In this document: positions 1 through 1,846 of the stretch, one piece after another
Position numbering within the stretch: the first letter of the stretch is position 1
How the letters are laid out: each line of letters starts with the position of its first letter
Assembly: GCF_003334255.1 (NCBI RefSeq)
Contig: NZ_QOWU01000145.1
Length of the DNA stretch: 1,846 bases
Strand: one strand, 5' to 3'
Source of the DNA: Escherichia coli
GTDB taxonomy: Bacteria > Pseudomonadota > Gammaproteobacteria > Enterobacterales > Enterobacteriaceae
The notes under the pieces: generated by a model
Told to the model about the DNA's origin: nothing
Seen by the model: the letters and a program-made list of their open reading frames with translations, nothing else
Databases searched by the model: none
Made by a program: the position numbers and the translations under genes

Positions 1-22
1 AGCTGATAGAAACAGAAGCCAC
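1..22 (-). CDS. insA: insA (IS1 transposition regulator) N-terminal fragment, 7 codons from a GTG start, truncated by window edge
   Basis: Minus strand from 22 reads GTG GCT TCT GTT TCT ATC AGC T, i.e. (M/V)ASVSIS, matching the known InsA N-terminus MASVSISCPSC. Preceded by GAGG. Only 22 nt are visible. Confidence 0.6.
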
Positions 23-42
23 TGGAGCACCTCAAAAACACC

Positions 43-48
43 ATCATA
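43..48 (-). promoter_or_regulatory. -10-like hexamer TATGAT in the IS1 insA promoter region, directing transcription leftward out of the window
   Basis: TATGAT on the minus strand lies 20 nt upstream of the insA GTG, with GAGG as a Shine-Dalgarno 7 nt before the GTG. The insA promoter is known to lie in the IS1 left end; the exact hexamer assignment is my inference. Confidence 0.5.
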
Positions 49-54
49 CACTAA

Positions 55-77
55 ATCAGTAAGTTGGCAGCATCACC
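55..77 (-). repeat. IS1 terminal inverted repeat IRL (about 23 bp), terminus at position 77 facing glcA
   Basis: Minus strand 77..55 reads GGTGATGCTGCCAACTTACTGAT, the known IS1 IRL. Exact extent of the IR is from established descriptions of IS1. Confidence 0.85.
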
Positions 78-1752
78 CTGGACCCAAATGTATATGCCGA
101 TGGGAGGACTGGGGCTATCCGCTCTGGTCGCCCTGATCCCGATAATATTCTTCTTCGTTGCACTCGCGGTATTACGTCTGAAAGGACATGTCGCTGGAGC
201 AATAACCCTTATATTATCTATCCTGATTGCAATATTCGCCTTTAAAATGCCGATTGATATGGCATTTGCTGCTGCGGGCTATGGCTTTATTTATGGATTA
301 TGGCCAATAGCGTGGATTATTGTCGCGGCGGTGTTCCTGTATAAATTAACCGTTGCCAGCGGGCAGTTCGATATTATCCGCAGCTCGGTTATCTCCATCA
401 CCGACGATCAGCGTTTGCAGGTGTTACTGATTGGTTTCTCCTTTGGTGCGTTGCTGGAAGGAGCGGCTGGCTTTGGTGCGCCGGTGGCGATTACCGGTGC
501 GCTGCTGGTGGGCCTGGGCTTCAAACCGTTATACGCGGCGGGGCTGTGTCTGATTGCCAATACTGCGCCGGTGGCGTTTGGTGCGTTGGGCGTGCCGATT
601 CTGGTCGCCGGTCAGGTAACGGGAATCGATCCGTTCCACATTGGCGCAATGGCGGGACGTCAGTTACCGTTCCTGTCGGTTCTTGTGCCGTTCTGGCTGG
701 TAGCAATGATGGACGGCTGGAAAGGGGTGAAAGAGACGTGGCCAGCGGCGCTGGTTGCTGGGGGAAGCTTCGCTGTCACTCAGTTCTTTACCTCTAACTA
801 TATTGGTCCGGAACTGCCGGATATTACTTCGGCGCTGGTGAGTATCGTCTCACTCGCTTTATTCCTTAAAGTCTGGCGGCCGAAAAATACCGAAACGGCA
901 ATCAGCATGGGACAATCCGCAGGTGCGATGGTGGTAAATAAGCCATCTTCTGGCGGTCCCGTGCCTTCAGAATATAGTCTGGGGCAAATCATTCGAGCGT
1001 GGTCACCGTTTTTAATCTTAACGGTGCTGGTCACCATCTGGACCATGAAGCCGTTTAAAGCGTTATTTGCTCCGGGCGGCGCGTTTTATTCACTGGTGAT
1101 TAATTTCCAGATCCCTCATTTGCATCAACAAGTGTTGAAAGCGGCACCCATTGTCGCCCAACCAACGCCAATGGATGCGGTGTTTAAATTCGACCCCCTC
1201 TCGGCTGGCGGCACCGCTATTTTTATTGCGGCGATTATCTCTATCTTCATCCTCGGTGTGGGGATCAAGAAAGGTATTGGCGTCTTTGCCGAAACGCTAA
1301 TTAGCTTGAAGTGGCCGATACTGTCGATTGGCATGGTGCTGGCGTTCGCCTTCGTCACCAACTATTCTGGCATGTCCACCACGCTGGCGCTGGTACTGGC
1401 AGGTACAGGCGTGATGTTCCCGTTCTTCTCACCGTTTCTCGGCTGGCTGGGCGTATTCCTTACCGGCTCGGACACCTCCTCTAACGCCCTGTTTGGTTCA
1501 CTGCAATCGACCACGGCGCAGCAAATCAACGTCTCTGACACCCTGCTGGTGGCAGCAAACACCAGCGGCGGCGTAACTGGCAAGATGATCTCCCCGCAAT
1601 CTATCGCCGTGGCCTGCGCCGCGACGGGCATGGTGGGCCGAGAATCTGAACTGTTCCGCTACACCGTGAAGCACAGTCTGATTTTTGCCAGCGTTATCGG
1701 CATTATCACCCTGCTGCAGGCGTATGTGTTTACCGGGATGTTAGTCTCGTAA
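64..1752 (+). CDS. glcA: Glycolate / L-lactate / D-lactate permease GlcA (LctP family, TC 2.A.14); 5' end abuts IS1 terminus and native start codon is absent
   Basis: Single long ORF ending at TAA 1750..1752. From [40 protein letters not shown] onward the translation matches my recollection of E. coli GlcA (about 560 aa, native N-terminus MVTWTQMYMP; homolog LldP starts MNLWQQNYDP). It is highly hydrophobic with a central hydrophilic loop, as expected for LctP permeases. The 64 coordinate is the ORF-track TTG, which lies inside IS1 sequence. The first in-frame ATGs are at 88, 94 and 100 (native Met7, Met9, Met11), so the true initiation site is uncertain. Confidence 0.93.
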
Positions 1753-1769
1753 ATCAATAAAGCCGGATG

Positions 1770-1792
1770 GGTGATGCTGCCAACTTACTGAT
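1770..1792 (+). repeat. IS1 terminal inverted repeat IRL (about 23 bp), terminus at 1770 facing glcA
   Basis: GGTGATGCTGCCAACTTACTGAT at 1770..1792. Confidence 0.85.
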
Positions 1793-1798
1793 TTAGTG

Positions 1799-1804
1799 TA
1801 TGAT
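1799..1804 (+). promoter_or_regulatory. -10-like hexamer TATGAT in the IS1 insA promoter region, directing transcription rightward out of the window
   Basis: TATGAT at 1799..1804, GAGG Shine-Dalgarno at 1814..1817, insA GTG at 1825. The spacing fits a promoter, leader and start arrangement. Hexamer assignment is inference. Confidence 0.5.
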
Positions 1805-1824
1805 GGTGTTTTTGAGGTGCTCCA

Positions 1825-1846
1825 GTGGCTTCTGTTTCTATCAGCT
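1825..1846 (+). CDS. insA: insA (IS1 transposition regulator) N-terminal fragment, 7 codons from a GTG start, truncated by window edge
   Basis: GTG GCT TCT GTT TCT ATC AGC T at 1825..1846 encodes (M/V)ASVSIS, matching the InsA N-terminus, and is preceded by GAGG. Confidence 0.6.

Follow-up and report, generated by a model that had tools for sequence, protein, structure and literature searches.

Composite transposons of the Tn9 and Tn1681 type display two IS1 copies around a short DNA segment, and the IS1 copies of Tn1681 are inverted. According to the Shapiro model, a resident IS1 that attacks a nearby site intramolecularly inverts the intervening DNA and leaves like ends facing inward. Insertions of IS1 typically yield target duplications of 8-9 bp (PMC12065110). 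During laboratory evolution, simple insertions accounted for 366 out of 902 IS1 insertions, the remainder being typically accompanied by deletions or inversions, and IS1 composite transposons were mobile (25 out of 40 duplications; PMC12065110).

The window, i.e. the whole stretch of 1,846 nt analysed here, was composed of an IS1 IRL end in reverse complement (1-77), glcA sequence (78-1769) and an IS1 IRL end in forward orientation (1770-1846). Like Tn9 and Tn1681, it displayed two IS1 copies around a short segment; in contrast to them, the cargo was a 5'-truncated chromosomal gene, apparently at its native locus, and no evidence of mobility was encountered. With intramolecular IS1 deletions and inversions it shared the geometry of like ends facing inward, and many such junctions were found 3' of glcA in other genomes, although linkage across IS1 is invisible in the window. 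Simple insertions of IS1A or IS1B were matched in termini (identical to those of annotated 768-bp copies), in AT-rich surroundings and, via strain TUM9812, in a 9-bp target, AGCCGGATG; the difference was that of each copy, which when complete comprises 768 bp with insA and insB', 77 nt are visible here and that the duplication is deduced across genomes. The window was best explained as a chromosomal glcA segment probably bracketed by two ordinary, inverted IS1 insertions, with no selected cassette. This kind of event is already known, being a textbook IS1 insertion in a terminator hairpin together with a second, gene-disrupting IS1. The features of the window were as follows.

1..77, minus strand: IS1 IRL end in reverse orientation, reverse complement of 1770-1846, with its terminus ...GGCAGCATCACC ending at 77
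70 to 43, minus strand: promoter-like site of the left IS1 (promoter scan)
22 to 1, minus strand: first seven codons of insA of the left IS1, placed by the 55-nt start offset of the annotated A23 IS1
64..1752, plus strand: chimeric ORF (MAASPWTQ...) opening at a TTG in the IS1 end, in frame with glcA (mechanical ORF call)
78..1752, plus strand: glcA (glycolate permease), its CDS shortened by 8 nt at the start (KE47 match; glcA annotated elsewhere)
78..86, no strand: CTGGACCCA, 9 bp predicted to have been the target of the left IS1, based on the 8-9 bp duplications of IS1
1753..1769, plus strand: native 17-nt spacer 3' of the glcA stop, the same in KE47 and A23
1760..1769, plus strand: AAGCCGGATG, first 10 of the 12 nt of the native terminator 5' arm (comparison with the native hairpin)
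1761..1769, no strand: AGCCGGATG, left copy of the putative 9-bp target-site duplication made by the right IS1, based on the complementary junction in TUM9812
1770..1846, plus strand: IS1 IRL end in forward orientation, identical to the IS1 ends of A23 and TUM9812
1777-1804, plus strand: promoter-like site of the right IS1 (promoter scan)
1825, plus strand: GTG start of insA of the right IS1 (55-nt offset from the annotated A23 IS1)

The stop codon of the glcA frame was a TAA at 1750-1752, followed by the 17-nt spacer 1753-1769 (ATCAATAAAGCCGGATG) and, from 1770, by the IS1 left end opening with GGTGATGCTGCC...; the IS1 terminal inverted repeat GGTGATGCTGCCAACTTACTGAT... was present at this junction. 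Positions 1770-1846 reproduced, without differences, the initial 77 nt of the annotated 768-bp IS1 copies of A23 and TUM9812, and were the exact reverse complement of 1-77. The perfect terminal inverted repeat of the window was 78 nt long (1-78 / 1769-1846); 77 nt of it belonged to the IS1 IRL and one base matched by chance. The stretch between both ends (78-1769) matched the KE47 chromosome exactly, where its native flanks were CAATATGGTTAC on the 5' side and ATCGTTAATATCATCCGGCTTCATTTAC... on the 3' side; the 4.94-Mb KE47 record (NZ_CP141089.1), evidently a chromosome, is filed in PLSDB as 'plasmid unnamed1'. No RNA family of Rfam was matched in the window.

The perfect symmetry of the 77-nt IS1 ends suggests that the window is an entire short-read de Bruijn contig (k = 77), which stopped in collapsed IS1 copies. 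Such symmetrical ends are typical of de Bruijn contigs of this sort, and could as such point to an assembly artefact, in which IS1 ends were mis-joined and no IS1 lies beside glcA in the real genome. This was scarcely credible: contig ends of this type are normally true, read-supported junctions, both junctions fell exactly at the canonical IS1 terminus, and a finished genome (TUM9812, see below) contains the junction complementary to that of the right site.

The spacer behind glcA contained no terminator. The terminator scan of the window returned no terminator-like site at 1740-1846, and folding of the junction regions was no better than that of shuffled sequence (z +2.2 and +0.4). As 17 nt are too short for any terminator, this absence was informative only beside the native sequence. 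There, the glcA terminator began 8 nt after the stop and read AAGCCGGATGAT-CGTTAAT-ATCATCCGGCTT, followed by the tail CATTTACATT; it displayed a 12-pair stem and a 7-nt loop (-18.7 kcal/mol, z -5.6) and was the sole terminator-like site that the scan detected within 600 nt of native sequence. A G+C-rich stem-loop with a T-rich tract directly 3' of the gene, as expected of an intrinsic terminator, was thus displayed by the native DNA and lacking in the window. IS1 had entered the 5' arm of this hairpin, its insertion point separating G(+17) from A(+18); 1760-1769 was a 10-nt orphan of the 12-nt arm, and the partner arm was absent from the window. The spacer was therefore without terminator because IS1 had inserted into the hairpin and split its 5' arm.

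In these respects, the preliminary description was borne out. It had correctly placed the TAA at 1750-1752, the 17-nt spacer devoid of hairpin and U-tract, and the start of IS1 at 1770; it had proposed that a native terminator was interrupted by IS1, which the native sequence confirmed by locating IS1 inside the 5' stem arm of the glcA hairpin; and the comparison with a reference that it had recommended placed the breakpoint in this arm, with the rest of the hairpin natively lying directly beyond the insertion point. A replacement hairpin formed by the retained arm and IS1 was considered as well and rejected as a terminator, since the only pairing obtained was a weak, long-range one between 1700-1711 and IRL, without T-tract. 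No relevant literature was found on glcA with IS1 or on the glcA/yghK terminator.

As for the origin of this arrangement, the source would be an IS1-rich E. coli (or Shigella) genome carrying two inverted IS1 copies with both IRL ends inward. The right IS1 would have entered target AGCCGGATG by canonical transposition, within the 5' arm of the Rho-independent terminator of glcA, and the hairpin can no longer form behind the gene. The far side, if intact, would regenerate an 11-bp-stem terminator just past IS1; a constructed far side (IS1 followed by the remaining terminator) indeed re-formed an 11-bp stem of -18.6 kcal/mol. The left IS1 would have entered codon 3 of glcA and taken away the start codon, the ribosome-binding site and the operon promoter. 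If both were simple insertions, the far sides should read IRR followed by AGCCGGATGATCGTTAAT and IRR followed by TGGGTCCAGGTAACCAT, and the expected IRR-junction strings would be GAGTCATTACC+AGCCGGATGATCGTTAAT and GAGTCATTACC+TGGGTCCAGGTAACCATATTG.

A complementary junction for the right site was found in one finished genome, that of TUM9812 (NZ_CP128926.1), in the order IS1 IRR, AGCCGGATG, ATCGTTAATATCATCCGGCTT... It matched a synthetic far-side query (IRR end, AGCCGGATG and the remaining terminator) over 160 of 160 contiguous nt with one mismatch. The right end of this IS1 was joined to AGCCGGATG+ATCGTTAAT..., the junction being read as ...GGAGTCATTACC / AGCCGGATGATCGTTAATATCATCCGGCTT... The element was 768 bp long, was inserted in the same orientation as in the window and had its first 77 nt identical to those of the IS1 of the window. 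Taken together, the IRL half of the window and the IRR half of TUM9812 agree with a single canonical IS1 insertion that duplicated the 9 bp AGCCGGATG, and by extension from this other strain's junction the same duplication is predicted in the window's own genome; the TUM9812 junction could also represent an independent reuse of the same site. Both genomes thus shared an IS1 at the glcA terminator with the same site, orientation and, over the first 77 nt, isoform. Unlike the window, TUM9812 had its IRL side joined to a truncated dTMP-kinase-like gene beside pitB, and the glc operon, glcA included, was gone; in segment 4747-6160 of this locus, the deletion started from the IS1 and had taken everything from the truncated dTMP-kinase-like gene to +8 past the glcA stop. 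The preliminary description had counted two features against its own reading, namely a native terminator lying beyond the IS1 and a simple insertion with a 9-bp target duplication. Both were largely recovered across genomes (the terminator beyond IS1, the 9-bp-duplication junction in TUM9812), the far sides of both IS1 copies lying outside the window.

On the left side, alignment with KE47 confirmed the earlier placement of the junction at codon 3. IS1 had deprived the glcA CDS of 8 nt at its start (the codons ATG and GTT plus two bases of the third codon), and the gene was also severed from its Shine-Dalgarno region and from the glc operon promoter. Around the junctions, no promoter-like sites were detected other than those of IS1 itself (70 to 43 and 1777-1804), both directed away from glcA. 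The chimeric ORF 64..1752 lacked a Shine-Dalgarno sequence and had no promoter reading into it; its 562-aa product found no exact match in a collection of 15 billion proteins, in which exact-protein look-up showed glcA forms of 554, 552 and 550 aa (alternative starts) to be common. A hybrid outward promoter at the left junction was considered and dismissed, as TTGGCA at 64-69 had no acceptable -10 at 16-18 nt and the scan found no promoter into glcA. With the start codon, the ribosome-binding site and the promoter link lost, glcA is here most likely an IS1-disrupted pseudogene of which expression would be abolished, rather than a neatly retained gene. The significance of the locus beyond annotation was little: glcA in the source genome should be called an IS1-disrupted pseudogene, and its missing terminator is accounted for by IS1.

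The state of glcA also bears on whether the two IS1 copies form a composite transposon in the style of Tn9 or Tn1681, with glcA as selected, mobilisable cargo. Two inverted IS1 ends do tightly flank a single gene, and composite transposons of IS1 were readily mobile during laboratory evolution (PMC12065110). Such an element should carry functional cargo and move as a unit, whereas the cargo was 5'-truncated, devoid of start codon and promoter, and the inner sequence showed 100% identity to the chromosomal glcA of the native locus. The near-side junctions, right and left, were both absent from the 5,426 complete E. coli genomes that formed the survey set, so that no second copy of either junction of the unit was found there; the left far-side junction had no contiguous match in complete genomes. 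The right junction, both near side and predicted far side, gave no exact matches in GTDB representative contigs and JGI metagenomes, and its near side gave none in IMG/VR. No IS1-joined glcA was encountered among PLSDB plasmids or phage records. A composite transposon was consequently judged very improbable. The earlier proposal of a trimmed cargo kept by selection was not supported, since glcA lacked start, Shine-Dalgarno sequence and promoter and since both of its ends were recurrent IS1 targets.

This recurrence was uncovered by the survey of complete genomes, in which positions were counted from the glcA stop. On the 3' side, an IS1 end with IRL facing glcA was present in 36 genomes at 16 positions from -11 to +543, and one with IRR facing glcA in 29 genomes at 14 positions at least, including +21 (inside the terminator loop), +40, +52 and +123. 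These IS1 ends (36 and 29 genomes) lay within ~550 nt past the stop, while the rough expectation for a random 580-nt interval was ~six genomes, given ~10 IS1 per genome (survey median) and ignoring clonality. The GC content of the glcA-sslE spacer was 25-33%. Simple insertions with their duplications were distributed as follows.

COL60J: 9-bp duplication GGTTACCTG, in glcA codons 1-4
E300010: 9-bp duplication TAAGAGACT, 8-16 nt before the ATG
EC24: 9-bp duplication ACCGGGATG, in the last codons of glcA
HS: 9-bp duplication CAGATAACC, at +123
Six other strains: duplications at +310, +338, +391, about +494, +501 and +543

The insertions of COL60J and E300010 were both within 25 nt of the left junction of the window. 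A further IS1 located in glcA, ~70 nt inward of this junction, was present in 32 complete genomes, including O25:H4 (a strain among the ten listed of these 32), and appears to be a lineage-wide disruption. As indicated by these cases, glcA is frequently sacrificed and not protected. The best-matching genomes with an identical glcA, among the matches listed, contained at least 20-39 IS1-containing places each, mostly at least 39. The bracketing observed in the window would result from a preference of IS1 for the AT-rich glcA leader and start and for the terminator and glcA-sslE spacer, in a lineage rich in IS1; such a local target preference, combined with a high IS1 load, would place two IS1 copies closely around glcA. 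The preliminary description had regarded tight breakpoints on both sides of one gene as unusual for random insertions, a view against which the many independent IS1 junctions at both glcA ends in other genomes spoke. As a by-product, the survey documents recurrent targeting by IS1 of the glcA-sslE spacer and of either end of glcA.

It was also considered whether the terminator hairpin with its flanks, and the glcA leader with its first codons, are true hot spots for IS1 strand transfer, directed by structure or by a host factor; this was regarded as doubtful. If it held, glcA would be a recurrently IS1-bracketed segment, repeatedly inverted, deleted or potentially mobilised, and the piling up of sslE/T2SS/pheV rearrangement junctions less than ~60 nt from the glcA stop would be explained. 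Reuse of single sites was encountered twice: at +41 by two IS1 isoforms (GGTAATG... and GGTGATG...) with different far sides, and at +123 by the simple insertion of HS (CAGATAACC) and by an IS1 of MLI104K1 in opposite orientation, joined to gspC.

Simple insertions were not the only junctions near glcA. Those from -11 to +230 mostly lacked duplications and led to gspC/gspL, to inverted sslE/pppA or to DNA unmapped to the glcA-gsp region; judging from the sequences joined, they are deletion or inversion junctions. They removed or flipped sslE, pppA and type II secretion genes, and the simple insertions clustered at +310 to +543. Where E. coli has lost or inverted sslE and the neighbouring type II secretion genes, IS1 repeatedly marks the event. 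The right IS1 of the window, the left one or both could border a deletion or distant rearrangement, in which case the remaining terminator, or the beginning of glcA together with glcB, would have been displaced; this corresponds to the nested deletions invoked in the preliminary description. This was considered rather unlikely. All nine IRL-facing junction classes from -11 to +228 were without duplication; six of them mapped to the glcA-gsp reference region (four resuming 6.7-16 kb away in gspC/gspL, one in inverted sslE/pppA, one being a nearby plus distant composite) and three ran into DNA unmapped there. The IRR-facing junctions at +21 and +52 entered unrelated DNA, again without duplication, and the one at +40 was followed by truncated gspK. 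TUM9812 displayed a deletion from an IS1 at this very site through the whole glc operon, and in MB53 glcA was isolated between an IS1 and a Wadjet island. On the other hand, the TUM9812 junction indicated that the +17 site arose by a standard insertion with a 9-bp stagger, and the nearest 5' precedents (COL60J and E300010), as well as EC24, were simple insertions. No far-side flank was common to any two of the surveyed IS1 copies, so that nearby junctions were independent events and not a nested series derived from one ancestral IS1. Trimming of the segment by nested deletions was thus not supported, even though deletion and inversion junctions were common 3' of glcA in other genomes.

Another alternative to two ordinary insertions is that the 1.69-kb glcA segment was flipped with respect to glcB and sslE, either by intramolecular replicative transposition, in which a resident IS1 attacks a second site and yields a second inverted copy, or by recombination between inverted IS1 copies. 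Both inward ends were IRL, as demanded by the intramolecular transposition model, but any two inverted IS1 copies display like ends inward and half of independent double hits are expected to do so. Non-simple IS1 insertions, moreover, were in the majority in laboratory evolution (366 of 902 being simple; PMC12065110), which favours an inversion. A fully resolved precedent was encountered in K71-77 (NZ_CP040886.1), where glcA was flipped between a pair of inverted IS1 copies and the two duplications, ctgggagaa and ctctgcgcc, had exchanged places as reverse complements. Like the window, this locus displayed glcA between two inverted IS1 copies; unlike it, the IRR ends were inward, the IS1 copies lay ~186 nt upstream and ~445 nt downstream, and both the gene and its terminator were intact. 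As the junction sequences are the same under two insertions and under an inversion, only linkage through IS1 separates the two, and nothing in the window reports on this linkage. An inversion was deemed unlikely, to about the same degree as a deletion endpoint, and two separate, ordinary insertions were retained as the probable origin of the window.

Several minor observations were made on the loci compared. In K71-77, the inverted glcA stretch and its IS1 pair corresponded to segment 3001-6850, and the site ctctgcgcc (KE47 segment 1308-1316) was located in the glcB-glcA spacer, inside the C0719 sRNA gene (RF00117, 299 bits; 1194-1415). In MB53, glcA stood alone, with an IS1 313 nt upstream, then LPS-biosynthesis genes and a truncated ytfJ-family gene, and a Wadjet (JetD) island replaced sslE after glcA. 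Three other draft contigs opened with foreign DNA (1-56, 1-31 and 1-26) fused to glcA codons 8-11. The foreign stretch 1-56 of one of these was an IS150 end, so that the 5' end of glcA was hit by other insertion sequences too. Finally, GGCATTATCACC, on the minus strand of the glcA 3' coding region (1699-1710), agreed with the terminus of the IS1 IRL in 10 out of 12 positions. It was inverted relative to the right IS1, from which it was ~60 nt away, and it paired with IRL in an RNA fold of -29.9 kcal/mol (z -2.5); this likeness could be due to chance or to a resemblance of target sites to IS1 ends.
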